Shown here: positions 1,606-43,568 of the stretch, one piece after another | Numbering within the stretch: position 1 is the stretch's first letter | How the letters are laid out: each line of letters opens with the position of its first letter | Source of the DNA: Pseudomonadota bacterium | GTDB taxonomy: Bacteria; Bdellovibrionota_F; JAHFAK01; JBDREC01 | Length of the DNA: 57,863 bases | NCBI GenBank assembly: GCA_043820105.1 | Contig: JBDREC010000034.1 | Span: 1-57,863, forward strand | Direction: 5' to 3' | Notes under the pieces: generated by a model | Told to the model about the DNA's origin: nothing | The model's database searches: none | Seen by the model: only the letters and a program-made list of their open reading frames with translations | Program-made: the position numbers and the translations under genes

Positions 1606-1920
1606 ATGAAAAAGCAATTAGCAAATATTATCTTCTTGGGTTTGGTGTATTTATTTTTTTGGAATAGTTTATTGGCTCAAATTCCATATAATCCACATAA
1701 TTTTAATCTTGGTTTGCACAAGGTACAAGTGTTACCGCTATCTGAATTTAATCCAAATGATCCTTTAATCGATATTGTTTATAACGCTTCTGATCCAATA
1801 CATGAGGAGTATAAAGTTGTTTATTACTATGATTCTAGAATAATTATTTATGCAACTTACCCCTTTATGTATTTCCAGGATACAAAAAGAAAATCCTTTA
1901 ATCCAAGGTTTATAAATTAA
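1606..1920 (+). CDS. Small secreted protein, VLP(L/I)SEF family (paralogous to 15289 and 15560 ORFs)
   Basis: GGGAG RBS before ATG 1606; signal peptide; VLPLSEFNPND motif. Confidence 0.65.
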   Translation: MKKQLANIIFLGLVYLFFWNSLLAQIPYNPHNFNLGLHKVQVLPLSEFNPNDPLIDIVYNASDPIHEEYKVVYYYDSRIIIYATYPFMYFQDTKRKSFNPRFIN

Positions 1921-1936
1921 ATAAAAGGAGCTTGAG

Positions 1937-2491
1937 ATGTTTAAAATTAAGATTTCTCTTATCTTTTTTATATTTACTCTTATTTACATGCATGCAGCAT
2001 TTTCGGATGTTATAGAAAATAACTATGAAGGTTTAATTAAAGATGAAAAATATTTGAATTTAGATGATTTTCTAAAAGGTGCTGCTTTAATTGAAGCGAG
2101 TTCAAAATTGCAAAGGGAAGAATATAAGAAAAAAATTATTATCATTTTTAATTGGGCCACATGGTGCCCCTATTGTAAAACAAATACAGGTCATTTAAAA
2201 AAAGCCATGGAAAAATATGGGGTAAAGGGATTGAGAATTATTGCCATTAACCATGATAAGGAAAGCCTAGAAACTGAAAGCGTTAAGAAATTAATAAGAA
2301 ATTATTTAGAGAAATATAATGTTACATGGCCCAACCTTGATGCCAGATCCTTAATGGAAAACAATAGTTTTAAAAGTCTTAACATAGATTATATGCCATT
2401 TACTGTAATTTTGGGACAGGACCTTCGAATTTTATATGTTCAACCTGATCTTAAATACATTGATGCCATATTAAAAAGCATATTAGGATAA
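1937..2491 (+). CDS. Exported TlpA/ResA-like thiol-disulfide oxidoreductase
   Basis: NWATWCPYC CxxC motif, signal peptide, AAGGAG RBS. Confidence 0.85.
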   Translation: MFKIKISLIFFIFTLIYMHAAFSDVIENNYEGLIKDEKYLNLDDFLKGAALIEASSKLQREEYKKKIIIIFNWATWCPYCKTNTGHLKKAMEKYGVKGLRIIAINHDKESLETESVKKLIRNYLEKYNVTWPNLDARSLMENNSFKSLNIDYMPFTVILGQDLRILYVQPDLKYIDAILKSILG

Positions 2492-2495
2492 TCTT

Positions 2496-3992
2496 ATGAG
2501 TAATTTATATATAATGCAAAATGAACACGATATGATAAGAAAAGAGCTATTCTCAAATATTGGTTTCATAACTCTTTCTGTTACTAATCTATGTAATGGC
2601 GCTTGTAAATATTGTTACATGCCTATTGTAGATAAAAAGCGAAAATCTGAATTTTTAAGTCATGACTTATTAAGGCAAGTATTAAATGCTATTCTTGTTA
2701 ATAATTTTGATAAAAAAAGAGCCCTAAAGCTTCAGTTTTTTGGAGGCGAGCCACTTCTAGTAGGTCTTGATTGGTATAAGAAAGCACTTCCTATAATCAG
2801 AAATATTGCGAAAGAGTCAAATATTGATATTGAGCTTGTCGTGCAAAGTAATTTTATCAATGTGAACCGTGAGATAATTGAGTACTTTGAAAAAGAGGAT
2901 ATAATTTTAAATGCAAGTCTTGATGGGAATTCCAAGCTTCATGATATTCTAGCATCGTCAGGTGAAAGAATAATAAAAAATATTAAACTTTTTTATAATA
3001 TAACAGGCAGAGCACCCGGCATTATAACGGTTCTTGGCAAGCATAATGCTTCTGCAGTTGAAGAAATATTGGAATATTTTATCAAAGATCTGAAGATTGA
3101 TTCGATAAATGTACTTTTTTTACATAATAAAAAAGTCTTAACTGATTCCTTTGAAGCAAATAGTGATGAAATGCTAGCTTGTTCTTACAAAATTCTAGAT
3201 ACAATGAAAAAGCAAAAAGGGAAGTTTATTGAGACTAATTTAAAAAGGTATCTTTTAATGTATTTTGACCATGATTATAACGAGGAGGAAAGATCAAAAC
3301 GCAATTGCCATTCTTTTTACTGTATGGCTTTTAGAAATATGTGTTCAATATTTCCTGATGGTGAAATTTTGGGATGTGATGCAATTAATTCTAACAGAAG
3401 GCAAAGAGGTCTTTACATTCAAGATTTTTATAAAGATCCTAAATATTTTTCAAAAGCTTATAATAAAATGGCCATATCATTTCATGAAAAAGGAGAAGCT
3501 TATTCAAAGTGTTTAACATGTTTTGCATCAAAAATATGCTCATTCAATTGTCCAGGCTTGAATAAAAACTATGAATATCATGAAAAGATGTGTGAATATA
3601 CAAAAAAGCTTTTTAAGTATTTTGAAATTAACAGAAAAAGTTTAATTAGTCTTTATAATATTATTAAAGACAAAAATTTAAAGATTAATAAAATGCAATT
3701 GGATGATGCCCTTAAAGATACTTTAGTTAATGTTGAAGATAAAAATAAAATTAAAAATGCCCTTAATTATTATAATAATCAAAATGAAGCTATTTTTAAT
3801 GAAAAATATAGAGTTAATGAGCTTATAAATCTGTTCACAAAGCTTGATTCAGCAAAGCTTATAATTGAAAAACAGACTAAAAATAATGTTTTTATTAAAT
3901 CAAGAAACAAAAGATTTATTTATAAACCAAGATCTTTGGAATTATATAAGGTGGATCCAAAAACTTATATGGAGATAATTTTATCAGAATAG
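2496..3992 (+). CDS. Radical SAM/SPASM peptide maturase
   Basis: CNGACKYC (CxxxCxxC), FFGGEPLL, SLDG; SPASM cysteines CHSFYC..DGEILGC and CLTCFASKICSFNC..C. Confidence 0.9.
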   Translation: MSNLYIMQNEHDMIRKELFSNIGFITLSVTNLCNGACKYCYMPIVDKKRKSEFLSHDLLRQVLNAILVNNFDKKRALKLQFFGGEPLLVGLDWYKKALPIIRNIAKESNIDIELVVQSNFINVNREIIEYFEKEDIILNASLDGNSKLHDILASSGERIIKNIKLFYNITGRAPGIITVLGKHNASAVEEILEYFIKDLKIDSINVLFLHNKKVLTDSFEANSDEMLACSYKILDTMKKQKGKFIETNLKRYLLMYFDHDYNEEERSKRNCHSFYCMAFRNMCSIFPDGEILGCDAINSNRRQRGLYIQDFYKDPKYFSKAYNKMAISFHEKGEAYSKCLTCFASKICSFNCPGLNKNYEYHEKMCEYTKKLFKYFEINRKSLISLYNIIKDKNLKINKMQLDDALKDTLVNVEDKNKIKNALNYYNNQNEAIFNEKYRVNELINLFTKLDSAKLIIEKQTKNNVFIKSRNKRFIYKPRSLELYKVDPKTYMEIILSE

Positions 3993-4026
3993 AAAGTTGA
4001 TTATTTTATCTTCAAAAGGAGGTTTT

Positions 4027-4236
4027 ATGTTTAAGAAAATTAATTTTAATAAAAATTCATATCTGGCTCTGGCTGATTGGGACAAGTGTCACTCTCAATA
4101 TACAAAAGAGCATTCACAAAGTGGAGATTCTCATAAAGATTCCCATAGCAAGGCTAAATCTTGTCCCCACAGCCAGAATGCAAGTCAGGCAAAGACTTAT
4201 AATCCATATAAAATGGCTCTGGAAGAGCTCGTATAA
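4027..4236 (+). CDS. Putative RiPP precursor peptide (69 aa) with repeated H-S-Q / aromatic-X-X motifs
   Basis: AAAGGAGG RBS before ATG 4027; lies between rSAM/SPASM and ABC exporter; WDK, HSQ x3, YTK, HKD, HSK. Confidence 0.75.
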   Translation: MFKKINFNKNSYLALADWDKCHSQYTKEHSQSGDSHKDSHSKAKSCPHSQNASQAKTYNPYKMALEELV

Positions 4237-4285
4237 ATATTTGAAATTATGCCCATGATTTTTAACTTAATTTGTTGTCTAATAA

Positions 4286-5959
4286 ATGGAAGCATTTAAA
4301 AGAATATATATTTTAATAAAGCCTTTTGAAAAGAAGATACTGTTCTATTATTTCTGCAGTATTATTATGATTATATTCTATGTTCCAATACCTATGTTTA
4401 ATAAATATCTAATTGATGATGTGTTGATTAAAAAAGATTTTAATCAACTATTATTTATTTTAATATTAATCTTAGCCTTTAAAATAATTTCAAGCCTTTT
4501 AAATAGTCTTAATTGTTACAAACTAGATAAACTGGCGGTAGCTATAAATATTTATACAAGAAAAAAACTTTTGTCTAGAATCTTAAGCATAAATAATAAT
4601 GTTTATAGAGCTTACAGTGGAGGTGACCTGATAGCACGGTTTGACAATGGGCAAGATGCAGTTATTTCATTTATTGAAGTTATTTTATCTAATATTGTAA
4701 ATCTAATTTATGTAATTGTTTTGGTTTTCATTCTATCTTATTTAAACCTTAAGCTATTTATGCTTGGAATGATATTGCTACCTTTGGAAGTCATTTTATC
4801 TATAAAAACAAAAGTTTTATTTTCTAAGTATATACCAAATATAGAAGCTAATAATGGGAAATGCAAAAATATTCTGCAAAAAATAATATACAATTTGCCG
4901 GAAATTAAAGGTTTTGGTGGATCTAAATATTCTTATAATAAATATAGTCTCATATTAGGTGAGTCAGGAAAATATAGCCTGATCATGGATAAAAAAACAA
5001 ATTTGCTTAACCTCTACAAAGGAATTGTCAAAGCACTGGCTATTGCTATTTACGGGTATTTTGGATGGTCTAGTGTAATTAATAATCAAATGACTTTAGG
5101 AGCTTTTGTTGCTTTTACAACTTATCTTGGATTTATCTATGGACCTGTTAAGGGCCTTTTGGATTTTATAAGTAAAATAGAAGGAGTAAAAATAAAGGCG
5201 GAGCGTTATTTTGAGCTATTAGCTTACAATAAAACCAGAGAATCAAAAGTTGGGTATTTTTGCTCTTCCGGAAACCTTAACTTAATAAGAATTTCTGAAC
5301 TTTCATTTGGATATAATAAAAATGAAATGATTTTTTCAAACCTCAATATGGATTTGCATTTAAACGGAATCACGGTAATCTGGGGTAAAAGTGGTATTGG
5401 AAAAACAACTTTATTGAATTTGATATATGGCGGCTTAAAACCTGAATCTGGAAAGATTGAATTCTTAACAAAAGAAAATAAATTGTGCTTTAATAAACCC
5501 TGTGATCAAATTTCTTATGTTACCCAAAAAGCAGTATTATTGCCAGCGTCCATTTATGAAAACATAACACTAAGCAGTACTATAAATAATGAAAAGATTG
5601 ATAAATGTAAAATTGCTTTAGAAAAAGCGGCTTGTGAATTTGTTAATGAGCTAAAAGATGGGATTTTTACTGAATATGATAAAAGTGTGGATATCTTCTC
5701 GCAAGGTGAAATACAAAGAATAAGTCTTGCAAGGATTTTTTACAACTCTAAAAAAATAATTTTGATTGATGAGCCAACAAATAATCTAGACTCAGTCCTT
5801 TCAAATAACTTAATTGCAAATATTAAGCAATCATCATTGAGTTTTCCTGTTATTATGGTCACTCATAATCAGGATCTTTTAAAATATGCCGATAGGATAA
5901 TTGAAATTAAGAAAAATGGGGTTATAAGTGTTTATAAAAATCCAAACAGGGGTCTTTAA
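4286..5959 (+). CDS. ABC exporter (TMD+NBD), no C39 peptidase domain
   Basis: N-terminal TM helices, Walker A GKSGIGKTT, signature FSQGE, Walker B IILIDE, H-loop VTH. Confidence 0.92.
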   Translation: MEAFKRIYILIKPFEKKILFYYFCSIIMIIFYVPIPMFNKYLIDDVLIKKDFNQLLFILILILAFKIISSLLNSLNCYKLDKLAVAINIYTRKKLLSRILSINNNVYRAYSGGDLIARFDNGQDAVISFIEVILSNIVNLIYVIVLVFILSYLNLKLFMLGMILLPLEVILSIKTKVLFSKYIPNIEANNGKCKNILQKIIYNLPEIKGFGGSKYSYNKYSLILGESGKYSLIMDKKTNLLNLYKGIVKALAIAIYGYFGWSSVINNQMTLGAFVAFTTYLGFIYGPVKGLLDFISKIEGVKIKAERYFELLAYNKTRESKVGYFCSSGNLNLIRISELSFGYNKNEMIFSNLNMDLHLNGITVIWGKSGIGKTTLLNLIYGGLKPESGKIEFLTKENKLCFNKPCDQISYVTQKAVLLPASIYENITLSSTINNEKIDKCKIALEKAACEFVNELKDGIFTEYDKSVDIFSQGEIQRISLARIFYNSKKIILIDEPTNNLDSVLSNNLIANIKQSSLSFPVIMVTHNQDLLKYADRIIEIKKNGVISVYKNPNRGL

Positions 5960-7332
5960 TGTTTCTTAAAGCTATATCAAGCAATTTAACAAAAGATTCC
6001 CTGCTAAAAGATCTTGAAATTAGCTGCCTGTTTTTGAGTAATAGTTATAATTTAATACAACTTAAAAATTCATTTATTGGCATTGCAAAAAATTATTACA
6101 AGTTTAAGTCTTATGAGGAGATAATATATTATCATTCTAAAATAACAAGCTATTTGAAAAAAGATAAACTCTTAATTAACACACTACTTAAATCAGAAAA
6201 ACAAAATCCTCTGTTTTTAAGTTTGAAACTGTCATTACTCAGCGCTATATATCAGTATATAAACAAGAAACAATTTATATTTTTTAAGAGCGATAAAATT
6301 AAATATAATGCTTTGGAAAAGGCAAAAGTTGTTGATGTAGTGGGTTTTAGCTATGATATAAAAAAACTTTTAAAAAGCCAGGACCTGATTGAATTAAATA
6401 TTATTGATAACACACTGAAAACCAAGAAATCATGTCTAAAATCCTTTATAAGTGAGCTCAAGAAAAACTTTCCACAAAAGAAAATAAATCTTTATGAAAA
6501 TTTAAAAGCCAAGAAAAGCATGAAGTGTGATTTCGCCATAATAACAGCTTCTACTATCTGCAACAATACTATTGATGAGACTTTAAGTTATTATGATGGA
6601 ATCGAAAAAATTTTGTTTGGTATCAGTGCAAATATACTAGCACCCCAAATTGAATCTAATAAAATCATTGCTTTAGAAACTATAGAAATTCCAAAAGATA
6701 TTATTTATTTGGCAATGTATAATTACCCTGAGTTTAATGGATTTTTTGCACAAGATTTGAATAAATCAAATTATATAAAAAAAGATGACTTTAAAGCTTC
6801 AATAAACGCTGAAATAATTCATTCTGCACTTATTGATTTTAATGCTTTTAAAAAAAAGGATTTTAATAAGACTATTTATAGTCTAGATAACCTTGAAGTC
6901 TTTTTAAAAAAAATAAGCAATAAAGGATTTATCTTTCATGGAAGCACAAGGTTAATTGGTGGTAAATTGAAACCAAAAATCTCAAATGATCTTGAAAAGG
7001 AAAGTGGAAACAGAAAGGCTGTATATATGACTTCTACACCTCAAGTGGCTCATTTCTGTTCTTTTATTAGTGGTAAAGCAGTTGGTTTGAGTGTGCATAA
7101 AACCTCTCGCAGTTTTGATCTGCATAAAAACAAAGAATTTGAAAATTCAATTTTTAGTGTAGAGTATTTAAACAAGCTTGCAATATCTGGTTTCATATAT
7201 ATCTTTCATGTTACACAAGCAGATGAATACTGCAATGGAGAATATCTATCGTATAAGCCTATTGAACCTCTTGCAACAATTAAAACTAGCCTAAAAGATT
7301 TTAATCACAAAATACGTGAAATTTCTACCTGA
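5959..7332 (+). CDS. DUF364 (Rossmann-like) protein fused to a C-terminal Arr/ADP-ribosyltransferase-like domain
   Basis: CDFAIITASTICNNTIDETL resembles DUF364; C-terminal FHGS..KP..AVYMT..GFIY..EYLSYKPIEP resembles the ART fold; start overlaps the ABC stop (TAATG). Confidence 0.55.
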   Translation: MFLKAISSNLTKDSLLKDLEISCLFLSNSYNLIQLKNSFIGIAKNYYKFKSYEEIIYYHSKITSYLKKDKLLINTLLKSEKQNPLFLSLKLSLLSAIYQYINKKQFIFFKSDKIKYNALEKAKVVDVVGFSYDIKKLLKSQDLIELNIIDNTLKTKKSCLKSFISELKKNFPQKKINLYENLKAKKSMKCDFAIITASTICNNTIDETLSYYDGIEKILFGISANILAPQIESNKIIALETIEIPKDIIYLAMYNYPEFNGFFAQDLNKSNYIKKDDFKASINAEIIHSALIDFNAFKKKDFNKTIYSLDNLEVFLKKISNKGFIFHGSTRLIGGKLKPKISNDLEKESGNRKAVYMTSTPQVAHFCSFISGKAVGLSVHKTSRSFDLHKNKEFENSIFSVEYLNKLAISGFIYIFHVTQADEYCNGEYLSYKPIEPLATIKTSLKDFNHKIREIST

Positions 7333-7581
7333 ATGCTACATACTAAATTTGAGTATTTAATTTTATACTTATTTAGTTTTCGATATAAAGTGGCTCTTGA
7401 AATATATAATTCTTTTTGAGTTTTTAGCCTTTAATCCACAGCTATTTTCTGTAATGACCTTATTTGAAGATCTTTTGTTATTTTTAGAGGCTTCTATCTT
7501 TTTCTTTTTCCAATATTTATGATGTAAGCAAGCGCTTCAATTTGATTAATTACTGTTGTTGCAAGATTTGCTTCATAAAAA

Positions 7582-8499
7582 TTATTCGTAATAATCGTTT
7601 TTCCAGTAATTAGATTCAAAAGGTGATCTTCTCTCAATAGTCTTTTTACCAGGAATCGGACAACTTTGTGCAGCTTTCCATGAGTATCCAAAATAATCAT
7701 AGGAATGATATAGCATTGGACATGCTGCTTTTAAATGAGTTACACTATCATAATCATTAACCTTCATTCCAATTATGGACCAGTCGCCACATAAATAACC
7801 AAAAAATACCGCGCCATTTCTGAATTTTTTTAAAGACCTTTTATCATCAATTATCAAATATTTATCTGATAGATGCTCTTCGTATGAAACATTAAACTCA
7901 CTGTGACTAAATTTGGAGTTCAACTTTCCACCACTAATACTTTCCACTGTTATTCCAGCCTCTAGATCTGGATTTTGATCATCATCCTTTTCATATCCAC
8001 CCAGAAGCCAATATGCTCCATTTCTCCAGCTTTGGTGGAAACTGCTTCCTTTACATAGGCATCTCCAATTAAAAGTTTCCAGGTAAAAGCTTTTATCCAA
8101 CTTAGCAAAGGCAATCCCTGAATAACTATCAATATATCTTTGAGTTATTTTTGCACCACCATGAGGACTTGGTTTCTCATCATTTGAATCTGGCCAAAAA
8201 TATTTTCCTCCTCTATCTTCTATGCATTTTGTTGGCACTATTATCAAATCACTATTAATTAAAGCTGCAGAACATATAGGTGTTGATGAACTTATATTGG
8301 AGCCAGTTACTTTTCCTATTGCTTCCACTGGAGGATCATCTTCAATATACAAATTTTCCGTAATTGTCATTGCATCAAAGTTTGAATCCATGGAAAACGA
8401 TCTCCTGGGCATATCATTCATTGGACAAGGGTCAGCCCATACAAGGCTTAAAAACGCCAAGTTAAAATATATTGTTGTAAATAAATTTATTCTTCTCAT
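7582..8499 (-). CDS. Secreted trypsin-fold protein with degenerate catalytic motifs
   Basis: Signal peptide; AIGKV..CSAALINSDLIIVPTKCI in place of TAAHC; no GDSG. Confidence 0.55.
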   Translation of the reverse strand: MRRINLFTTIYFNLAFLSLVWADPCPMNDMPRRSFSMDSNFDAMTITENLYIEDDPPVEAIGKVTGSNISSSTPICSAALINSDLIIVPTKCIEDRGGKYFWPDSNDEKPSPHGGAKITQRYIDSYSGIAFAKLDKSFYLETFNWRCLCKGSSFHQSWRNGAYWLLGGYEKDDDQNPDLEAGITVESISGGKLNSKFSHSEFNVSYEEHLSDKYLIIDDKRSLKKFRNGAVFFGYLCGDWSIIGMKVNDYDSVTHLKAACPMLYHSYDYFGYSWKAAQSCPIPGKKTIERRSPFESNYWKNDYYE

Positions 8500-8518
8500 T
8501 AAAGCCTCCTATTTTTTA

Positions 8519-9748
8519 TTAATTATAACTCAATGTAATTTTATGAATTTGATTATTTGAATTATCTAAAAAAACAATATACGGTTTGCATATGTTCTTT
8601 TCTTCCTCCGCATTTAAACTAAAAATAATCTTTTTAGATAAATCTATATCTTTTTCAAGTTTAACCTCATCGCTAACGCAAGAGTTTAATATGAACTCTA
8701 TTTTTTTTATATTTGGAAGTGGTTGGATTGAACCATAATTAGTAATATTTGCTTCTTGAAATTTTGATATGATTAATTTTTCAGCTTCCTCATTTGATAA
8801 TATTACATTTAGGGTTTGCTCATTATATTCGTATATTATAGATGGTTCATAAAAATAAACATCATCAGTAGTATTAATATTCAAATCATTTGTTCCTGAT
8901 TGATATAAGTTGATATTTTCTGAAAACAACGTATCTTCTTTAAGATATGTTTTAAACAAATTATGATCTTGGATTGTGTAATCTATCTTGCTTATTTCAA
9001 ATTCCTTTGAATTTGATGGATAAAATACATAGTAGCGATCATTAAAACCCTCAATTGCAAATATATTTCTAATAATATTCTGCTTTTGAACTTCAATATG
9101 TGTTGAAATAATTTTTGCCAAATCATAAGATATAAGATCTTTCAGAGCCTCACTTGAATTGCGCAGCAATGATTCCAGTGTAAATTCATCTTGATCTTTT
9201 AAATCTACAACAAATTCAGAATTAGAAAATTCGCTAAGACCATATAAATTCTCCTCAAAATATTCTAGATCAAACAGAACTTCATTTTCTGTAACTTTAT
9301 AAATTCCATAGATATTTGCATCATATATAAGACTATTTGATTCATACTCTTCAATATAAAGATCAAAATCCATTTCTTTTTTATTTAAATAGATAAAGGA
9401 AATAATAATGTTTTCATTATTACTATTTATCTCTTCACTTGCTTTATAGAACACATGATTATTTTCCTCAACTAATGCAAGTTGATAAGCTAAAAAATCA
9501 TTCCCGGGTGCTTCTGGTTCTTCTTTTTCTTCAATTTGATCGCCTTCAGGAGTACTTTCTTCTTCAGGATCATTTGCTTCCAATTTTTCTTCATTAAGAT
9601 CACTGGGTCCTTCGTAAAAAATAATTTGCTTTTTTTCAGATGACTGTTTTTGCCTTACATTTTTTATTTTCATGGACTCATTACAATTAATAAAGAGAAC
9701 CAAGAAAATTAAAAAACTAAAATAAATACCTATTTGTTTTATGGTCAT
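8519..9748 (-). CDS. Acidic putative lipoprotein, paralog of 28798..30663
   Basis: Lipoprotein-like signal (FINC); DDVYFYEP motif shared with DDVYYYKP. Confidence 0.6.
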   Translation of the reverse strand: MTIKQIGIYFSFLIFLVLFINCNESMKIKNVRQKQSSEKKQIIFYEGPSDLNEEKLEANDPEEESTPEGDQIEEKEEPEAPGNDFLAYQLALVEENNHVFYKASEEINSNNENIIISFIYLNKKEMDFDLYIEEYESNSLIYDANIYGIYKVTENEVLFDLEYFEENLYGLSEFSNSEFVVDLKDQDEFTLESLLRNSSEALKDLISYDLAKIISTHIEVQKQNIIRNIFAIEGFNDRYYVFYPSNSKEFEISKIDYTIQDHNLFKTYLKEDTLFSENINLYQSGTNDLNINTTDDVYFYEPSIIYEYNEQTLNVILSNEEAEKLIISKFQEANITNYGSIQPLPNIKKIEFILNSCVSDEVKLEKDIDLSKKIIFSLNAEEEKNICKPYIVFLDNSNNQIHKITLSYN

Positions 9749-9750
9749 AC

Positions 9751-11412
9751 TTACCTCCCTATTGATAACAGTTTATTGCTACCATTATTAAGATATACTT
9801 TTAATAGGCCCGGATCAGTTGGTGTAATATATGCTTGTGTATACTCACTTACAAGATTTACATATACTGGATAAATGTCATACTCATTATATTTGTCCTG
9901 CACTTGAATTCTTTTAGGTCTGATTGCAATTTCAACATTTTTTGAAGGATAGTTAATAATTTCATACTTAAGCTTCAGATTCTCATAATCAATACAGTAT
10001 AGGCTTGAGGTTTTATATTTATTATCAGAAGCTAAAAGAACCAGGCAGTTTTCTGGTTTAGATTCCATATAGCCATTACACGTTTCATTTGAAGATAAAT
10101 TAATTATCAATTCATTGCTCAACTTTAGATTCTTAATCCTAATTTCATTTTTTTCTATTAAGAGGCTTATTCTTCCTTCAAAAGCTTGATATTTATTTGA
10201 AATAACTACATTATTAAAGCCATCATAATCCGGCAGTGTAATATATTGCGGATTGATATTTCCAGTCGCTTCAGGAGCCTGAACAAGGTCTTTTGGACTT
10301 GATCTTGTATAGGTAATTTTTGAAATTGAATTATAATATCTTGTTAAATCTATTACATACTTATTTAAAATCGATAAATCGCTTTTTTCCAATTTAATTA
10401 GATTTATTTTTTTTAATTTCTTTAACTCCATTTCATTTAATGATCCCGGATTTTTTTTGTATTTTTCATAAAGGTAATGTTCTTTTTTCATTTCACTGTT
10501 ATTTACTCCAATATTTAACAATTCTTCTTCTGATAATTGACCATCATTTATAAAGGCCAGGTATTCTTTATCTATTCTTGCTTCTTTTTTAAGACTAGCA
10601 ATCCAATTGAAAAATAGCTCAAGATATTCCATTTTCATACTTTGATCTTCGATTAATATCTTTGCTTCTAATGCCAGGTTTCCTCTCCCAAATAGATTAT
10701 ACAGTTGATATTGAGTCAAATATACTGCCGTTCTATCTCTAAACAATTTATCGACATACTCATCAGCAAATATATATTTCATAAGGACTTCTCCTCTGAT
10801 CGCAACTTCTTTTTTAGAATAATACTCCAAAGTAATTTTAAATTGAATATTTCCATCCTTAGAATTTTCATAGAGACTTTCAACATCTTTATGATCCATC
10901 TGAAACCCCAATCTTATAACACGAGATGCAAATATAATGTCACCATCAGAATTTAAGGGAATATTTTCTATCCAATTGTCATTTCCTGGAATTTTTACTT
11001 TAACGTGAAAGTCTTTTGGCGTGATACATTGAACAACGTCATTATCTTTTAGATCAAAATAATTTCTCAATTCTTGTTCAACTATTTTATCATCATATAA
11101 AATTAAAAAAGAAATAACATTTGAAGCATGGCTTTCATGACTATAAGTATCTTTATGATAATAAATCCCCGTGTCTTTGGGACTTCCAACTAACAGAAGA
11201 ACAGGTGTATAAAAAATCTTTATACGCCTATGATCACTACTATCATCAACAAAAACACAAATGGAATACTCTGCACCACTATCAAAAACCTGAAACATTT
11301 GGCAATTAACCTCCTCGGGATTAGAATTTGCAAAAACATTTTGTGAACAAGAAATAAAAATTAATAGAGCTAATTTTTCGATTAATTTTATTAATATTTT
11401 ATGATTAAACAT
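9751..11412 (-). CDS. Secreted hypothetical protein, probable paralog of 11423..12949
   Basis: Long ORF with signal peptide (VFA); start at ATG 11412 inferred. Confidence 0.6.
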   Translation of the reverse strand: MFNHKILIKLIEKLALLIFISCSQNVFANSNPEEVNCQMFQVFDSGAEYSICVFVDDSSDHRRIKIFYTPVLLLVGSPKDTGIYYHKDTYSHESHASNVISFLILYDDKIVEQELRNYFDLKDNDVVQCITPKDFHVKVKIPGNDNWIENIPLNSDGDIIFASRVIRLGFQMDHKDVESLYENSKDGNIQFKITLEYYSKKEVAIRGEVLMKYIFADEYVDKLFRDRTAVYLTQYQLYNLFGRGNLALEAKILIEDQSMKMEYLELFFNWIASLKKEARIDKEYLAFINDGQLSEEELLNIGVNNSEMKKEHYLYEKYKKNPGSLNEMELKKLKKINLIKLEKSDLSILNKYVIDLTRYYNSISKITYTRSSPKDLVQAPEATGNINPQYITLPDYDGFNNVVISNKYQAFEGRISLLIEKNEIRIKNLKLSNELIINLSSNETCNGYMESKPENCLVLLASDNKYKTSSLYCIDYENLKLKYEIINYPSKNVEIAIRPKRIQVQDKYNEYDIYPVYVNLVSEYTQAYITPTDPGLLKVYLNNGSNKLLSIGR

Positions 11413-11422
11413 AAAACACACT

Positions 11423-12949
11423 CTACTTTCTTTTCCATGTAATAGCATATCTATTTATAAAGAGATCCTTAGAACCAGGATCTGCAACACCAGTTGCAGA
11501 TGAAGAATTGTAGACGCTTGACTCAATAGTGTCATATTTTGTATTTCTAACCATTGTTACAATATTAAGTCCTGCTTCATCTGAATAGCTTTCAACTTCA
11601 ATTAAAGTCTTAATTTTCATTTCAAGGTCTGTCTTGGAAATATTATATATTTTTAAGTCTAAGGGTTCAATTTGCATTCCTTCCCAATAGTCTTTCCACT
11701 TGACAAGGTGCTCATAGGTTTCATCAAACTCTTGATTATGTTCATAGGCATCTATCATTTCTTCAATGGTTTTTTTAATATAATGTCCCTGTAAATCTGG
11801 TTTTACATTTATTAATTTGAGGATATCAACCTCTCCTTTCATATGACCATAAATATCTATATTTTTATCCTCCAAAATCTTTTTATATGTTTTCAGGAAA
11901 TCTTTCATAACTTCATGTTTCATTGTATATTCTTCAGACTCTTGCTCTGACATTGTTTTATAATTAGGAGTCATAAATAGATCATCTTCTTTAATCTTAT
12001 AAGTGGAAATTATTCCTTCTGATAAATCTCCTAAGCGAGCGGCCTTTTCTTCAACATAACTTAAAAAGTCCTCACATTTTTTTAGAAAAAATGGGTATAA
12101 GGATTTATCATCCATTTTTATTTTAACCCTATTATCAATGGCTACTTGTGTGAAAAAATCCATCATTTGTGTTTTGCTTGCTAAAACACTTCCTCCCATA
12201 TCTGTTCTACCTCCCAAAAGGTCTCTCAATAACTCACTATTAATTTTGATTTCAGTATTTGCATCAATAAAGCTTTTTTCTACCTTTTGTCCAGGATACA
12301 TATATCGAATTTTAAATGTTATTCCTTTTTTAAGATAACTTACAAATTCATCAAGATATATTGTTGGTACTTTAAACTCTATTAACTGCTCCCTTGCTAA
12401 TCTAATTTGATTTGCGTCCAAATCAGTTTTCTCAGGAAGACTCCAGCCTAAATTAAATGGAAAGCAATTTTCATCATATAAATACATATCAATTAAAAAC
12501 ATCCCGATCGGCTGCAAATTAAATTCACTTAAAGGTTGTTTTTCGTAATCGGATATTCTACTGACTAGCTTTTCTTTAATTTCCTTTTCATCAGCAACAA
12601 GCCACATATATACTACAGAATATGGATCATCTTCAAATTTCATCACTTCTATTTTCGCATGAGTGGCACTTGGATCTTTTTGAAAAAGCATACAGGGTGA
12701 ATAAATATACTGCTTTTTTTGATATTCATTTCTTTTTACTGATTTACCTTCCCATACATATATATATTGGCCACCTCTTCCACATTCTTCAATAAGTGAA
12801 GCAGCTTCTACAGGAGGGTCCCAGGTTCTATTTTGATACCTTGTTGTATCAATCCTGGGTGATGACAGCGTGATATGACTTTGCATTGTCAACAAAAAAA
12901 CAACTAACTTTAATATTGAAAGAAATACTAATCTTCTATTATTAGTCAT
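11423..12949 (-). CDS. Secreted hypothetical protein
   Basis: 508-aa ORF, TGGAG RBS, signal peptide; first gene of a 4-gene operon. Confidence 0.65.
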   Translation of the reverse strand: MTNNRRLVFLSILKLVVFLLTMQSHITLSSPRIDTTRYQNRTWDPPVEAASLIEECGRGGQYIYVWEGKSVKRNEYQKKQYIYSPCMLFQKDPSATHAKIEVMKFEDDPYSVVYMWLVADEKEIKEKLVSRISDYEKQPLSEFNLQPIGMFLIDMYLYDENCFPFNLGWSLPEKTDLDANQIRLAREQLIEFKVPTIYLDEFVSYLKKGITFKIRYMYPGQKVEKSFIDANTEIKINSELLRDLLGGRTDMGGSVLASKTQMMDFFTQVAIDNRVKIKMDDKSLYPFFLKKCEDFLSYVEEKAARLGDLSEGIISTYKIKEDDLFMTPNYKTMSEQESEEYTMKHEVMKDFLKTYKKILEDKNIDIYGHMKGEVDILKLINVKPDLQGHYIKKTIEEMIDAYEHNQEFDETYEHLVKWKDYWEGMQIEPLDLKIYNISKTDLEMKIKTLIEVESYSDEAGLNIVTMVRNTKYDTIESSVYNSSSATGVADPGSKDLFINRYAITWKRK

Positions 12950-21985: not shown

Positions 21986-22873
21986 CTAATGCCTTTTATC
22001 AGAGTCCAGAAGTAATGGGGGAATTATATTTAAACATAGTTGACATATAGAAGAACAATCTGCAGATAGTTCATTGGGTCTAATCCCTAACATTGCTATT
22101 AATTCATTAAAATTATATCTATTCAATAAATTAAAAAATCTAGATTTAATGTATTGTTTTACATTTTTCTTAATAATTCGATTATTCATACTTGAAAAAC
22201 CACAATGCAAAAGCGAAGAACAACAATGTGTGACACCATATGAAGGTAAATATACTAGATAAGAAAGACGAGGACATTTTTTATTTAATACTTCCGATTC
22301 AAAAGAGTAATATTTATAATCTAAATGATTTTTTTTCGCATTACCTATAGGTAATGTTCTCTGAAATTCAAATTCTACATCAAATTCCTTTTCATACTTA
22401 TAATTATCTGCAAGATCTTCAGGAGAGGCGATTGTTGAAATTAGTGAAATATTAATATCCTTATCATTGCAGTATAAAACCAGATTTTTAACATTATCAA
22501 TATTAATGAACCTAGCATGATATTTATCATACGATACTATTACCTTTTTTAAATTTGGTATATTTCCAATGACCTTGTAACAAGAATCGAAAGAATTGGA
22601 AAACCAAGCATTTGTGGTTATTTCAAAGTTTATATTTGGTAATTCTCTAAGAATAGATTTCACTAAACAATGTATTGTTGAAAGGTTAAGAGTAGGTTCC
22701 CCACCAGTTAAATGCACAGTATCAGCATTTAAGTCCTTCAATATATTGATCACATTTTGTGTTTCACTTTTCGCTAATCCAGGAAATTGCACATCTGTAC
22801 ACATACAATGTGCACATTGTATATTGCAATTAGGAGTAACAAACACACCAAGTTTTTTATTAAATAATTCCAT
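21986..22873 (-). CDS. YydG/EpeE-like radical SAM peptide epimerase
   Basis: CNIQCAHC, TGGE, TNAWF, SYDKYHARF, IGNAK, CP..CCS and SSICQLC match the motif order recalled for B. subtilis YydG. Confidence 0.72.
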   Translation of the reverse strand: MELFNKKLGVFVTPNCNIQCAHCMCTDVQFPGLAKSETQNVINILKDLNADTVHLTGGEPTLNLSTIHCLVKSILRELPNINFEITTNAWFSNSFDSCYKVIGNIPNLKKVIVSYDKYHARFINIDNVKNLVLYCNDKDINISLISTIASPEDLADNYKYEKEFDVEFEFQRTLPIGNAKKNHLDYKYYSFESEVLNKKCPRLSYLVYLPSYGVTHCCSSLLHCGFSSMNNRIIKKNVKQYIKSRFFNLLNRYNFNELIAMLGIRPNELSADCSSICQLCLNIIPPLLLDSDKRH

Positions 22874-33044: not shown

Positions 33045-33090
33045 GCAAATGGAAAGGTTTAATAATACTAATGGCAAACAGGAGGCAGAT

Positions 33091-34131
33091 ATGCACATGG
33101 CTGACGCATTAATTTCGCCGCCGATAGGCGTAACAATGCTTATAGTTTCCGCTGGGCTAATTACATATAGCGCGAAAAAAATAAAAGCTGACTCCGATGA
33201 GAAAAAAATTCCGCTCATGGGAGTTTTGGGTGCTTTTATTTTTGCGTCTCAAATGATTAATTTTAGTATTCCAGCTACTGGCTCAAGTGGACATTTAGGT
33301 GGCGGAATGATTTTAGCTATATTGCTTGGGCCGTACCCAGCTTTTCTTGTAATGTGTTCAGTGCTATTGGTACAGGCCCTGTTTTTCGCTGATGGTGGCT
33401 TGTTGGCTCTCGGTTGTAATATGTTTAATTTAGGATTTTTCCCATGTTTTATCGCTTATCCATTTGTTTTCAGGAAGCTTATAAAAAATAATTTTAATGA
33501 AAAACAAATGCTTATAGCTTCGCTTGTATCAGCAATAATTGCCTTACAGCTTGGTGCATTTTGTGTTGTGCTGGAAACCTTTTTTTCTGGAATTTCTGAG
33601 CTGCCTTTTAAAACTTTTTTCTTCATGATGCAGCCAATTCATTTGGCAATTGGCATTGTTGAGGGAATAGTTACTTCTGCAGTTGTAATATTTATATGGA
33701 AAGCAAAACCGGAGATTTTTAATTCAGCATTTAACAAGACAAGCATGGCAAGCACTAAGCTTAAAAAAGTTATAATATCCCTTTTGATTATTTCGGCCTT
33801 GGTTGGTGCTATTATAAGCTGGTTTGCCTCGTCAAACCCTGATGGACTTGAATGGTCTATGTTTAAAACATCAGGGCATGAAGAATTAGAAACTCCAGGT
33901 AATAATATTTATTCTAAAGCTGCAGAGATTCAAGCAAAGACAACCTTTATGCCCGATTATGCCTTTAAAAAAGATGCAGCTAAAAACATAAGCACTGAAG
34001 AAAGTCCCGGATTATGGGCTTCAGTAGATTTCGGAACATCAATAGCCGGGATAGTTGGAGCTGCCTTGACACTTATCATTATATTATTTATAGGATTCGC
34101 ACTCAAAAAAAAAGCAAGGCTTAGTAATTGA
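33091..34131 (+). CDS. nikMN: Nickel/cobalt ECF transporter substrate component, NikMN/CbiMN-type fusion
   Basis: GGAGG RBS then MHMADAL N-terminus, GSSGHLGGG, PDGLE motif. Confidence 0.9.
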   Translation: MHMADALISPPIGVTMLIVSAGLITYSAKKIKADSDEKKIPLMGVLGAFIFASQMINFSIPATGSSGHLGGGMILAILLGPYPAFLVMCSVLLVQALFFADGGLLALGCNMFNLGFFPCFIAYPFVFRKLIKNNFNEKQMLIASLVSAIIALQLGAFCVVLETFFSGISELPFKTFFFMMQPIHLAIGIVEGIVTSAVVIFIWKAKPEIFNSAFNKTSMASTKLKKVIISLLIISALVGAIISWFASSNPDGLEWSMFKTSGHEELETPGNNIYSKAAEIQAKTTFMPDYAFKKDAAKNISTEESPGLWASVDFGTSIAGIVGAALTLIIILFIGFALKKKARLSN

Positions 34132-34940
34132 ATAAAATAGAAAATGAATTTTTTAATATTTCACACCTGGACAAGCTATCTACAATTGATAGCCCTATTC
34201 ATAAATTGGATGCCAGAGCCAAACTAATTACAACAGCAATATTTATAATAATAGTTGTTTCATATAATAAATATGCTATTTTAGCATTATTACCCTTTTT
34301 TCTATATCCTGTTGTTTTGATTACCATTGGAAATCTGCCCTGCATGTATTTGTTAAAAAAAATATTAATTGTTTCTCCGTTTGCAATAATGGTAGGTATA
34401 TTTAATCCAATAATAGACAATCAGGTTTTATTAAATTGGGGTTTTATAACAATCTCGGCTGGTTTTGTCTCCTTTATTTCAATAATAATAAAATTCATAT
34501 TAACGGTTTCAGCTGCCTTGATTCTTATTTCCTTGAGTAGTTTTAATTCTGTTTGTTATGCATTATTAAAACTGCGAGTTCCAAAATTATTTGTTGTACA
34601 ATTGTTATTTTTTTATCGATATATTTTTGTTTTAATTGATGAAGCAAAAAGAATGCAAAGAGCCAGGGCACTTAGAACTTTTCAACAGAGTAAAATACGT
34701 TTTAATACTTTCATTTCTCTTGTTGGAAATTTACTGGTGAGAACAATGGATAGAGCAGAAAGAATAAATTTAGCGATGTCTTGCAGGGGATTTGACGGAA
34801 ACATTCGCCTTTTAAATAAAACAAAATTTGGCTTAACTGAATTTTTTTTCATAAGCACAGCAACGATATTCTTTGTTATATTTAGGTGCTATAATGTGCC
34901 ACTTGTACTGGGAACATTAATCATGGAGATTATAAAATGA
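34128..34940 (+). CDS. nikQ: ECF transporter T component NikQ/CbiQ
   Basis: LDARAK, YRYIFVL..E..RM.RA, RAERI..AM..RGF. Confidence 0.9.
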   Translation: MNKIENEFFNISHLDKLSTIDSPIHKLDARAKLITTAIFIIIVVSYNKYAILALLPFFLYPVVLITIGNLPCMYLLKKILIVSPFAIMVGIFNPIIDNQVLLNWGFITISAGFVSFISIIIKFILTVSAALILISLSSFNSVCYALLKLRVPKLFVVQLLFFYRYIFVLIDEAKRMQRARALRTFQQSKIRFNTFISLVGNLLVRTMDRAERINLAMSCRGFDGNIRLLNKTKFGLTEFFFISTATIFFVIFRCYNVPLVLGTLIMEIIK

Positions 34941-35689
34941 GTCATCATATCGTTGAAGCAATAAATCTGCATTTTCAATATGCAGATGGCACAAAGGGTT
35001 TAAATGGTGTCTCTTTTAAAATAACACATGGTGAATCCGTTGCTTTAGTTGGTGAAAATGGGGCAGGAAAATCAACACTTTTACTTCATATGAACGGATG
35101 TTTATTTCCAACAGACGGAGAAATGAGAGTAGGTGAATATCCAATCACCCTGAATAATTTAAATATTATGAGAAGAACAGTTGGTATGGTCTTCCAAAAT
35201 GCCGATGACCAGCTTTTTATGCCGACTGTTTTTGATGATGTAGCATTTGGGCCGTTAAATTTGGGTCTTGAAAAAGTTGAAATAAGTAAAATAGTTGCAG
35301 CCTCTCTTGAAAAAGTTAGTATGCAGCATCTGTCAGCCAGACCGCCATACAATCTTTCTCAGGGGGAGAAAAGAGCTGTTGCAATAGCCACAGTCCTGGC
35401 CATGTCTCCGGATATTTTAGTAATGGATGAACCAACATCAAATTTAGATCCCGTTTCCCGCACGCGCCTAATTAATCTGCTAAAAGGTTTTAATCATACC
35501 AAAATTATAGCAACGCATGATTTGGATATGGCCCTGGATTTGTGTGAAAGGACAATTGTGTTACATGAGGGAAAGATTACAGCAGATGGTCCGACAAAAA
35601 AGCTTTTTTATGATGAAGCTCTTTTAAATAAAAGTAACCTTGAAAAACCTCTTAGATTTCAGCATTGTCCTGTCTGTAATAAAATTTGA
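34937..35689 (+). CDS. nikO: ECF transporter ATPase NikO/CbiO
   Basis: GENGAGKST, FQNADDQLF, LSQGE, MDEP, ATHD. Confidence 0.92.
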   Translation: MSHHIVEAINLHFQYADGTKGLNGVSFKITHGESVALVGENGAGKSTLLLHMNGCLFPTDGEMRVGEYPITLNNLNIMRRTVGMVFQNADDQLFMPTVFDDVAFGPLNLGLEKVEISKIVAASLEKVSMQHLSARPPYNLSQGEKRAVAIATVLAMSPDILVMDEPTSNLDPVSRTRLINLLKGFNHTKIIATHDLDMALDLCERTIVLHEGKITADGPTKKLFYDEALLNKSNLEKPLRFQHCPVCNKI

Positions 35690-35721
35690 GCAAATTGAAC
35701 ACTCACGTCCGTACTAAATAC

Positions 35722-35814
35722 TCACTGCTGCAAATGCACCATTGCTGCCAGGATACCAATAATAGCAACAACAATCATTAATTCAACGAGTGTAAAGCCT
35801 TTTTTCTTAACCCT
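35722..35814 (-). pseudogene. Type IV pilin N-terminal remnant
   Basis: Manual translation (R)VKKKG/FTLVELMIVVAIIGILAAMVHLQQ*; AAAGGGGA RBS followed by AGG instead of ATG. Confidence 0.75.
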
Positions 35815-35929
35815 GGTTGTCCCCTTTTTTATTTAAAATGAATATTATTATTATACTAAAAAAAAATAAAAAGATAATCAATAACCTTGATTAAAATCAT
35901 AAATTTTATTTATTTTTGGTAAAAACATA

Positions 35930-36406
35930 TTATGGATTATAGGCATAGATCCCTTTTGTACTAACACCCAAATCTGAATTATAACCACCAATTAAATAGA
36001 TTTTCCCATTAATTGCAGCTGCTCTTCCATGAGTTCTTTTTATTGAAGGCTCTGTAAGGCCAGTAAGCCATGTATCAACTAGATCTTCATCGCTTGATTC
36101 ACTTTGCGATGCTTCTGTACTATCATCATCATTACCACTGCTATTGGAATTTGTATTAAGACTTGAGTTTTCTGAAGCACTATTTTCTGACTCAGAGCTA
36201 CCACTATTAGCATTATTACTAGAAGCACCATTAGCGCTGTCTTCTAAAACTTCATCTCCATCATTTGTATTTTCATCTGAGCCATCACTTGAGGTTTCCG
36301 CTAGGTCTGAAAAATCAGAATAGTTTATTGTAGTATCACATGAACAAAACTGTAATGCTATTAATATAATTAGACTTATTGGCGCATAATTCATATTGTT
36401 TATCAC
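35930..36406 (-). pseudogene. Ser/Asp-rich lipoprotein ending after a single Kelch repeat (probably truncated)
   Basis: Lipoprotein-like signal; R..AAAINGKIYLIGG..YNP then stop. Confidence 0.55.
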
Positions 36407-36527
36407 AAATGTCTCCCAAATTTACTAGAATTAATTGTATCATATTAAGAAGAAAAAGACAATATTGCAGGTTTTCAATCAAAATAGAAATTTCATATAG
36501 ATTTTTGCTCTGTCATTAAAATCTGGT

Positions 36528-36569
36528 AAAATTTTCAATAATCAACAATCAATTCTCAATTTTCAATGG
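36528..36569 (+). repeat. 42-bp direct repeat, copy 2
   Basis: Identical to 32671-32712. Confidence 0.9.
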
Positions 36570-36597
36570 GAAAATTCTTTCCCAAATTACCACATTA

Positions 36598-37128: not shown

Positions 37129-37170
37129 AAGTTTTCCTTTATTTTAAATTAATACCTATCAAGCCTTAAC

Positions 37171-37200
37171 CTTGTTCTCTTGTTCTCTTGTTCTCTTGTC
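37171..37200 (+). repeat. Octamer tandem repeat (CTTGTTCT)n
   Basis: About 3.7 units; reverse-complement units at 39600-39615. Confidence 0.8.
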
Positions 37201-37348
37201 CCCTAATCCCAATTTTTCTTTACATTTTTTTATTAATATTCTTTATAACAGCTGTTAAACTTTATAAAAAAAAGTAACTTATTTTTCAAATTAAAAAAGT
37301 AAAGACAATGAAGATCATTAATAAATAAAATTTACAAAATGGAAATAA

Positions 37349-39595: not shown

Positions 39596-39634
39596 AAAGA
39601 GAACAAGGGAACAAGCAGAAGGAAATATATTAAA

Positions 39635-40297: not shown

Positions 40298-40301
40298 ATT
40301 A

Positions 40302-40400: not shown

Positions 40401-40415
40401 GATAATGGAGATACA

Positions 40416-43143: not shown

Positions 43144-43155
43144 AAGGATTGTAAA

Positions 43156-43566: not shown

Positions 43567-43568
43567 GA

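Follow-up and report, generated by a model that had tools for sequence, protein, structure and literature searches.

Triceptides contain cyclophanes in which an aromatic ring carbon is joined to the beta carbon of the third residue of an aromatic-X-X motif, and crosslinks of this type from the C2 carbon of a histidine are described for HtkB on HTK, HaaB on HAA and YhhB on HNR (PMC11499958). The minviopeptin cluster micABCD of Mucilaginibacter inviolabilis adds HAS, the motif on which MicB acts (Guo et al., PNAS 2026, PMC12912966). According to that paper, His5-C2 of minviopeptin is linked to Ser7-C-beta, the same histidine bears adenosine diphosphate (ADP)-ribose on N-tau through MicD, and MicD residues H7 and E101 are essential (PMC12912966). 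In the HXS anti-phage system, a repeat protein rich in His, Ser and basic residues receives one site-specific modification (modified motif SHRSS) and, after export, serves as a periplasmic effector (Li et al., Nat Commun 2026, PMC13128918). The only DUF364 protein reported as characterised, Orf5 of the bonnevillamide cluster, cyclises 4''-methyl-S-adenosylmethionine for a non-ribosomal peptide and is encoded beside a radical S-adenosylmethionine (SAM) gene; the same source describes co-occurrence with radical SAM genes (ACS Chem Biol 2026, PMC12930334). In this study, we compared these systems with a five-gene operon of an uncultured groundwater bacterium, located on contig JBDREC010000034.1 of assembly GCA_043820105.1. 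The stretch analyzed, positions 1-57,863 of the forward strand of this contig, is hereafter called the window.

The locus is most likely a radical SAM peptide-modification operon. Five genes lie head to tail on the plus strand at 1937-7332, with successive gaps of 4, 34, 49 and −1 bases, and the start of gene 5 (5959-7332, 457 aa) overlaps the stop of the exporter gene by one base. The first-pass annotation of this DNA had proposed, from the sequence, a radical SAM/SPASM enzyme, a peptide, an ATP-binding cassette (ABC) exporter, a DUF364 fusion and an upstream exported TlpA-like protein, and this gene set was confirmed by Pfam, NCBIfam and translation (Table 1). No leader protease is encoded in the five-gene operon. 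The locus is real and coherent, and the cyclophane chemistry suggested earlier appears plausible, with somewhat better support than the sequence annotation by itself had given it. Our fuller proposal, an exported ribosomal peptide of a new family that would carry aromatic-to-side-chain cyclophanes and an ADP-ribosylated histidine, is tentative and held with slightly less than even confidence. The new elements are the clade of the maturase, the type of precursor and the fusion of DUF364 with an ART-like domain.

Table 1. Coordinates and assignments of the operon features in the window.
Feature	Positions	Strand	Description
Gene 1	1937..2491	+	184 aa, exported TlpA/ResA-like thioredoxin-fold protein; ends 4 bases 5' of the maturase gene
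Gene 2	2496..3992	+	498 aa, radical SAM/SPASM peptide maturase of an unnamed clade
Ribosome binding site of peptide gene	4018..4022	+	GGAGG, 4 bases 5' of the ATG, read from the sequence
Gene 3	4027..4236	+	69-aa precursor-like peptide
Gene 4	4286..5959	+	557 aa, half-size ABC exporter (transmembrane domain and ATPase), without a C39 peptidase domain
Gene 5, N-terminal part	5959..6801	+	aa 1-281 of the 457-aa fusion, two-domain DUF4213/DUF364 (Pfam and ESM Atlas)
Gene 5, C-terminal part	6811..7332	+	aa 285-457, probable ADP-ribosyltransferase of the H-Y-E type with a MicD-like fold

By analogy, the mic cluster and the triceptide systems would be the closest models for how the locus works; its maturase does not belong to their enzyme families. 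Like the mic cluster, it combines a radical SAM/SPASM maturase, several aromatic-X-X triplets including His-X-X, and an H-Y-E type ADP-ribosyltransferase, for which the window has a candidate assigned by alignment. It differs in that its maturase scores 61.7 bits on the YhhB model versus 345-359 for the Mucilaginibacter enzymes, its motifs are HSQ and aromatic-X-Lys, and the similarity of its ADP-ribosyltransferase-like domain to the MicD-like protein of locus L096 is not significant. The locus has no MicC-like oxygenase. Its ADP-ribosyltransferase-like domain is part of a fusion with DUF4213/DUF364, and genes for an exporter of the ABC type and for an exported thioredoxin are present. With the triceptide synthases (HtkB, HaaB, YhhB, XyeB, GrrM/OscB, FxsB and ChlB) it shares a SPASM radical SAM enzyme and a precursor with aromatic-X-X repeats, whereas the window enzyme misses all curated models, aligns over its N-terminal half only and carries a C-terminal extension of about 100 residues. 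The likeness to HXS lies in the radical SAM maturation, proposed for the window, of an exported product rich in His, Ser and basic residues (SHRSS there, SHKDS in the window); here, however, there is one radical SAM enzyme, no match to HxsC or HxsD, and a 69-aa peptide without a peptidoglycan-binding domain match. Orf5 shares the Pfam family, the adjacent radical SAM gene and the natural-product setting of the window protein, but it stands alone in a non-ribosomal pathway, whereas in the window an ART-like domain is joined to DUF364 and the setting is that of a ribosomal peptide. A literature search, which left supplements outside its scope so that catalogued examples may exist, found no description of an HSQ-type precursor or of a DUF364 protein in a ribosomal-peptide cluster. 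It likewise returned nothing on XyeB-type cyclophanes with Asn and nothing relevant for a triceptide combined with an ABC transporter and a thioredoxin.

The maturase belongs to the radical SAM/SPASM superfamily, and its sequence contains the cysteines for one SAM cluster and two auxiliary clusters. The cluster motif C33-x3-C37-x2-C40 and residues G84 and E85 of the GGE motif were invariant in 65 homologues. The SPASM pattern C276-x12-G289-x4-C294, C339-x2-C342-x5-C348-x3-C352 and C366 was also invariant in the 65, and C271 is present in addition; the seven-Cys SPASM motif provides ligands for two auxiliary clusters. Pfam Radical_SAM matched the enzyme at 43.4 bits against a cut-off of 29.5. 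The Pfam SPASM model was silent on the window maturase and matched the relatives P0079, P0082, P0113 and L012. An AlphaFold2 model built with the 65 homologues had a mean predicted local distance difference test (pLDDT) value of 85.9. The C-terminal extension (approximately aa 395-498) had no family match; in the model, residues 396-450 were of low confidence, and residues 455-497 formed four strands and a helix at pLDDT 66-80. P0079, a member of the same clade, has a PqqD peptide-recognition domain at its C-terminus (E 5e-12), and the modelled four strands and helix of the window enzyme could possibly be a cut-down recognition element. Foldseek matches of the model included anSME (TMt 0.76-0.79), ChlB (0.68-0.69) and CteB (0.59-0.62), as well as SuiB and TigE; anSME, CteB, ChlB and SuiB are SPASM enzymes that modify peptides or proteins.

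The first-pass annotation had likened this enzyme to triceptide maturases. The radical SAM/SPASM part of that assignment stood, with all cysteines in place, but every curated cyclophane-synthase model missed the enzyme, and a quick tree placed it apart from YhhB/FxsB-like enzymes. On sequence comparison, it lies outside every known triceptide family. All of its top NCBIfam matches except anSME are peptide maturases, and the matches to GrrM/OscB (76.9 bits), HxsB (73.9 bits) and YhhB (61.7 bits) covered only its N-terminal half. Membership of three further described families was also rejected. For PapB/SCIFF, the scores were 83.3 of the required 340 bits and 50.6 of 425, and the peptide has two Cys only, with Tyr and Gln at +4. 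For HXS, HxsB scored 73.9 of 370, and none of the ten proteins scanned matched HxsA, HxsC or HxsD at E up to 0.01. For anSME, the score was 80.2 of 349.45, the peptide contains S-C-P-H-S without Arg, and no sulfatase match was found among the neighbouring proteins; the sulfatase substrate motif of anSME is (C/S)-X-(P/A)-X-R.

Relatives of the maturase are few and distant. A word-index search returned nothing above 26% identity, and an exhaustive search of 1.84 billion representatives returned one close relative, P0078 (33% identity over residues 17-492, E 1.9e-91), which shares the C-terminal extension; the next relatives stood at 26-29% identity. A pattern scan, limited to a single genome for each species, retained 80 stretches (79 loci) out of 396 relatives. 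The best relative with genomic context was in the Planctomycetota locus L012 (26% identity to the window enzyme, E 2e-36), where two tandem radical SAM/SPASM maturase genes are followed by a 66-aa gene (L012:4348-7765). The tail of this small protein holds ten Tyr-X-Asn triplets, four of them YSN, and then HAS. Neither L012 enzyme reached any NCBIfam cut-off, and from its sequence L012 is an uncharacterised candidate cyclophane cluster. Searching 401 Planctomycetota genomes with the first L012 enzyme yielded two more loci, L101 and L102. The L101 maturase shares 26% identity with the window enzyme (E 1e-34), and the precursor encoded beside it contains eight Trp-X-Asn triplets. Further genes of L101 code for an MNIO enzyme of the MbnB/TglH type, an S8 protease and a methyltransferase, and this company identifies it as a cluster for a peptide made by the ribosome and altered post-translationally (RiPP). 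The L102 enzyme is 30% identical to the first L012 enzyme, and its precursor has four Trp-X-Asn triplets and one Tyr-Ile-Gln outside the repeat tail. The precursors of L101:2289-7212 and L102:235-4434, each adjoined by a maturase gene, are alike in a leader starting MAIVRS, in a linker rich in Gly and in a Trp-X-Asn/Cys tail; L102 also has an S8 protease.

An aromatic-X-Asn repeat gene thus stood next to the maturase in all three of the nearest context-bearing relatives, which lends support to the earlier interpretation. The carboxamide units there (YSN, WHN, WNN and WRN) appear to echo the His-Ser-Gln of the window peptide, and YSN may be read as the Asn counterpart of HSQ. The three clusters differ from the window in being Tyr/Trp-based with Asn, in the second radical SAM enzyme of L012 and in the MNIO enzyme, S8 protease and methyltransferase of L101; no DUF364, ART, exporter or thioredoxin gene was present in the stretches read. 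In a quick maximum-likelihood tree of 41 rows, from which L101 and L102 were left out, the window enzyme paired with P0078 (support 100), and both fell in a 26-row clade (support 87) together with both L012 enzymes. Six loci with Cys-rich small genes and two YhhB/FxsB-like Mucilaginibacter enzymes were placed outside this clade.

The 69-aa peptide would be the substrate of the maturase because its gene directly follows the maturase gene, has a strong ribosome binding site and encodes a protein of odd composition, rich in His, Ser, Gln and Lys. The open reading frame (ORF) list started the small gene at a TTG (3997-4236, 79 aa), and the ATG at 4027 gives the 69-aa form that fits the residue numbering of the first-pass annotation. 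With this start, every listed feature was recovered, namely W18DK, H22SQ, Y25TK, H29SQ, H36KD, H40SK and H48SQ, as well as C21 and C46. A short N-terminal part of the peptide precedes the core at residues 18-50 (WDKCHSQYTKEHSQSGDSHKDSHSKAKSCPHSQ), and the C-terminal tail ends in ALEELV. At the third positions of the seven triplets stand three Gln, three Lys and one Asp. "Aromatic-X-X" by itself is no motif, as each of the 12 aromatic residues in the peptide starts one. HSQ occurs three times, and by statistics computed post hoc, with the pattern already seen, any tripeptide reached at least three copies in 1815 of 200,000 peptide shuffles (0.9%), while the spacing of the seven aromatic residues within 18-50, all at least three apart, had a chance probability of 0.027. 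The three HSQ copies use different codons (CACTCTCAA, CATTCACAA and CACAGCCAG) and therefore do not represent a recent DNA repeat. Histidine makes up 7.25% of the peptide versus 1.66% in the long ORFs of the genome, approximately a fourfold excess, and Lys and Ser each account for 14.5%.

A stop-free run of at least 79 aa in the 293-base spacer arose in 506 of 20,000 spacer shuffles and in 424 of 20,000 random 293-mers of window composition. Among 11,545 small ORFs of the genome, 31 had a His tripeptide at least three times, and manual reading showed the other 30 to be tandem-repeat or simple-sequence frames. Small ORFs with a repeated TTYHLPL (for example on contigs C6, C19, C28, C41, C75 and C89) are frames through scattered short tandem DNA repeats. 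No family in the Pfam and NCBIfam searches matched the peptide. Taken together, these tests, all of them post hoc, suggest that the peptide gene is likely a real, selected gene. The string [A/S]LEEL is shared by the C-terminus of the window peptide and the L012 leader; at five residues, this is a lead and not evidence. Complex prediction of the maturase (65-row alignment) with the peptide scored 0.00 in two runs without controls, and it counts neither way.

The C-terminal domain of gene 5 is probably an ADP-ribosyltransferase, with H327, Y356 and E428 as its candidate triad, as judged by alignment. The domain alone had no match in Pfam (E up to 10), PHROGs, PADLOC or PDB sequences, and of the 146 candidates (95-303 aa) from a word-index search, not one had an E value of 0.1 or lower. 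Its structural neighbours in the ESM Atlas were unnamed clusters at template modelling (TM) scores of 0.73-0.75, a "putative RES domain" cluster (0.68), DUF6886 (0.54) and ART-PolyVal (0.42-0.45). A MAFFT alignment with MicD-like proteins placed H327, Y356 and E428 on MicD H7, Y30 and E101, with triad spacings of 29 and 72 residues in the window domain versus 23 and 71 in MicD. Identity was 30-32% to MicD-like proteins of the type found at locus L017 (here L092 and L094) and 19% to L096. Smith-Waterman scores against L092 and L094 gave z values of 5.45 and 5.33, reached by three and one of 2000 shuffles, respectively, and the window domain ranked 6th of 2002 with a five-sequence hidden Markov model. 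The earlier "ART" call is thus strengthened by the triad alignment, the structural neighbours and z values of about 5.4, but it found no family match and no backing from the comparison with L096, which is weighed below.

The proteins used for this comparison come from the genus of the minviopeptin producer. L017, L020 and L022, all from Mucilaginibacter, emerged from the locus scan as minviopeptin-type clusters. L017:4709-10968 (and likewise L020, L022 and L095) is a variant of this cluster type with two precursor copies ending in ...HGSVGGTFSRGADC(L/M). L017 encodes two precursors, two YhhB/FxsB-like maturases (345-359 bits on the YhhB model), a 288-aa protein, a zinc alcohol-dehydrogenase-like protein and a 148-aa MicD-like protein; the 288-aa protein has no family match and is taken as MicC-like by its position. 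The L020 and L022 genomes encode the same 148-aa protein at 93-98% identity. L096, a second type from another Mucilaginibacter genome, has H7, D11, Y30, F41 and E101 exactly as in the published MicD numbering. A MicD-like protein was present in 4 of 229 genomes of the genus and in 1 of 301 of the order.

Residues 1-281 of gene 5 form a two-domain DUF4213/DUF364 protein with an enolase-N-like and a Rossmann-like fold. Pfam DUF364 (PF04016) matched at 31.6 bits against a cut-off of 23, and the ESM Atlas model of residues 1-281 aligned with DUF364/DUF4213 clusters at TM scores of 0.51 by query and 0.77 by hit; DUF4213 itself had no sequence match in gene 5. This is the sole DUF364 protein of the host genome. 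Searches with the whole fusion found only itself by word index among proteins of 251-800 aa and only chance FabZ matches among PDB sequences. AlphaFold2 without an alignment gave a mean pLDDT of 30.8 for the 457-aa fusion, too low to use.

The remaining two genes fit an exported product. Gene 4 matched Pfam ABC_membrane (79.6 bits) and ABC_tran (83.9 bits), and its best NCBIfam matches were peptide/bacteriocin and type I exporters, all under cut-off. Alignments with peptidase-bearing exporters started at profile positions 146-156 and protein residues 11-23 with no peptidase match, and gene 4 therefore lacks a C39 domain. Gene 1 matched Pfam AhpC-TSA (42.5 bits), Redoxin (37.1) and Thioredoxin_8 (36.5). 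The fold families passed, and the NCBIfam models ResA (44.5 of 170 bits) and TlpA (24.2 of 230) scored far under their cut-offs. Its translation shows a hydrophobic, signal-like N-terminal segment and a WCPYC active site. A disulfide between C21 and C46 formed via the TlpA-like protein, as suggested earlier, is plausible.

Based on these features, the following pathway can be proposed. With the 69-aa peptide as substrate, the maturase would take a side-chain hydrogen at the third residue of the aromatic-X-X triplets and couple that carbon to the ring, with His C2, Trp and Tyr as ring partners. The candidate sites are His-Ser-Gln (three) and Trp/Tyr/His-X-Lys (three), which would give several three-residue cyclophanes, each with a loss of 2 Da. 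The MicD-like domain would then use nicotinamide adenine dinucleotide (NAD+) to ADP-ribosylate a cross-linked histidine (+541 Da), in the manner of MicD acting on minviopeptin's His-Ala-Ser ring. Speculatively, the fused DUF364 part could perform a second SAM-dependent step or serve as a nucleotide- or peptide-binding module. The ABC exporter would carry the product across the inner membrane, and, once in the periplasm, its residues C21 and C46 would have their redox state set by the TlpA-like thioredoxin. As a guess, the product could be a His/Cys-rich metal-binding or antibacterial peptide. A more specific version is rather doubtful: a new maturase clade, defined by the C-terminal extension and aromatic-X-Asn/Gln repeat precursors, would install a series of mainly His-centred cyclophanes on a single short peptide, and a MicD-like ART fused to a SAM-binding DUF364 would decorate the C2-substituted imidazoles. 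Diphthamide is a C2-modified histidine that is ADP-ribosylated on a ring nitrogen. The proposed C2-substituted, ADP-ribosylated histidine would recall it, but on a secreted bacterial peptide of a deep-branching groundwater lineage.

Several results weigh against this cyclophane and ADP-ribosylation proposal. Every named triceptide synthase family was rejected for the window enzyme (YhhB 61.7 of 445 bits, XyeB 42.7 of 450, FxsB 45 of 370, GrrM/OscB 76.9 of 310 and AmcB 54.4 of 425); matches to these models were confined to the N-terminal half, ending at residues 151-225, and the alignment with the Mucilaginibacter enzyme covered only residues 26-269. Among the full-length matches, the best-scoring models were PapB (83.3 bits), anSME (80.2) and DynA (79.9), all below their cut-offs. 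The motif statistics on the peptide are post hoc, as stated above. None of the aromatic-X-Asn clusters is characterised, and the L012, L101 and L102 precursors also hold two to five Cys each, so that they fall short of proving carbon-carbon chemistry. P0078 is encoded on a 1912-base contig, which was not found among the genome and metagenome contigs searched. A scan for P0079 likewise recovered just an unrelated, distant locus (L011). For the ART-like domain, the comparison with L096, which has MicD's own residue numbering, gave a Smith-Waterman z of only 0.61 (497 of 2000 shuffles reached the score). With hhalign, the E value was 0.019 at a probability of 2.5%, and BLASTP gave E 0.16 against the L017 protein and 3.8 against L096, so the similarity to ART proteins is weak.

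Part of this evidence points toward a different chemistry, in which the maturase would form sulfur-to-carbon thioethers from C21 and C46, as in sacti- and ranthipeptides or QhpD systems, and the histidines would serve a function such as metal binding. PapB is the top NCBIfam match and runs full length, as do the SCIFF, CcpM, nif11 and CXXX-repeat maturase models (below their cut-offs), and P0078 matches the QhpD model over its full length at 85.8 bits. When the clade profile was run against solved structures, CteB was the best match (176.9 bits), followed by anSME (174). Both Cys directly precede an HSQ (CHSQ and CPHSQ) and could be part of the repeated unit. Among 26 more distant loci read manually, six had a Cys-rich small gene beside the enzyme and one, L012, an aromatic repeat. 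In QhpD systems, an ABC-type exporter accompanies a cross-linked small subunit. Nevertheless, the scores are far under the cut-offs, a quarter of them or less (83.3/340, 50.6/425 and 47.6/453). PapB substrates have a Cys-X3-Asp/Glu spacing, and the peptide, with its two Cys only, lacks it (Y25 follows C21 at +4, and Q50 follows C46). The window enzyme also lacks the N-terminal RRE domain of CteB, with matches starting at CteB residue 94. Moreover, the Cys-type loci lie outside the clade of the window enzyme in the quick tree, and the nearest context-bearing relatives carry aromatic-X-Asn repeats. We consider thioether formation unlikely on this balance, yet a serious rival to the cyclophane proposal.

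A periplasmic effector matured by a radical SAM enzyme in place of a diffusible natural product, either HXS-like and directed against phages or a metal-handling peptide working with the TlpA-like protein, appears quite improbable. The HxsB match of 73.9 bits, the resemblance of SHKDS and SHSK in the Lys- and Ser-rich window peptide to the modified SHRSS of HXS, and the presence of an exporter and an exported thioredoxin in the operon would fit such a role, and ART-fold domains are common in conflict systems. However, the HxsB score is far under the cut-off of 370 and covers the N-terminal half only, HxsA, HxsC and HxsD have no match at the locus (E up to 0.01), and there is one radical SAM gene rather than two. 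The peptide has no peptidoglycan-binding domain match and no His-X-Ser repeat. PADLOC returned only generic viperin and ATPase matches, and a scan of 43 window ORFs of at least 120 aa revealed neither phage nor defence genes. It is very unlikely, too, that the small ORF is not the substrate or not a gene and that the operon serves cofactor, metal or protein maturation, for example by anSME-like oxidation. The anSME model is the second NCBIfam match (80.2 bits, full length) and anSME the best structural match, DUF364 is reported to have been linked first to cofactor or metal chemistry (PMC2954201), and about 2% of random spacers contain an open frame this long. Against this stand the strong ribosome binding site, the position of the peptide gene between maturase and exporter as in RiPP clusters, the non-random features of the peptide (the three HSQ copies, the aromatic spacing and the His enrichment) and the precursor genes that adjoin the enzyme's relatives. 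Further, the anSME score is far under its cut-off of 349, and no sulfatase or obvious protein-substrate family was matched among the proteins of the first 13 kb.

The host genome spans 3.8 Mb in 113 contigs and is 92.9% complete. Its only relatives among the genomes compared were two species of the same order and one of the same class, which marks the host as a deep lineage. The window is AT-rich (25-34% G+C in its first 14 kb), and its genes outside the operon indicate a cell of Gram-negative type, with TonB/ExbB/ExbD, a TonB-dependent receptor, RecBC-type genes and sigma-54 activators. Metagenome contigs identical to parts of the locus were found in four groundwater or biofilm DNA runs from three studies, at a depth of about 2-3, and no RNA run was listed as containing the locus. 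Within window positions 1900-7400, these short contigs cover, for example, 4080-4245, 5846-6123 and 7160-7378; the 166-base contig of run X2 exactly matches 4080-4245, overlapping the peptide gene. One of the four runs may be the source sample of the genome. Promoter and terminator scans found sites no more numerous than in shuffles, the hairpin at the end of the peptide gene was ordinary (z −0.28), and an Rfam scan of the window gave no match.

Directly 3' of the operon, four consecutive minus-strand genes (7582-12949; 305, 409, 565 and 508 aa) encode proteins with signal-like N-termini and no Pfam or NCBIfam match. A second, short radical SAM protein (295 aa, Radical_SAM and Fer4_12) is encoded on the minus strand at 21986-22873, with a hybrid sensor kinase on one side and, on the other, an 820-aa protein whose C-terminal domain is GNAT. 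At 33049-45405, approximately 26 kb from the operon of the His-rich peptide, an uptake set of the cobalt or nickel type (CbiM/CbiQ/ATPase) precedes a metal-uptake neighbourhood's further genes for a TonB-dependent receptor, DUF3450, two ExbB, ExbD, TonB and a TPR protein. Elsewhere in the same genome, contigs C64 (L009:5456-7148) and C65 (L010:5638-7007) carry further radical SAM/SPASM genes of 489 and 371 aa, each with a small charged ORF directly 5' (54 and 72 aa), and these are candidate peptide-maturase pairs. In the same-class relative (L004), the radical SAM locus is high-GC and unrelated.

If the cyclophane and ADP-ribosylation proposal is true, the operon would connect a still uncharted clade of radical SAM enzymes that modify peptides with a substrate rule readable from sequence, aromatic-X-carboxamide or aromatic-X-Lys triplets. 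ADP-ribosylation would then be known for only the second time as a step in the biosynthesis of a ribosomal peptide, after a first case published in 2026, and the DUF364 domain would gain its first functional setting in ribosomal-peptide chemistry. The proposal would also make sharp mass predictions, a loss of 2 Da per ring and a gain of 541 Da dependent on H327 and E428. Even if it is false, the locus shows the reach of radical SAM peptide clusters into lineages with almost no sequenced relatives. With an enzyme set that has almost no public relatives, in an uncultured groundwater bacterium, the operon appears to be a good candidate for new peptide chemistry.

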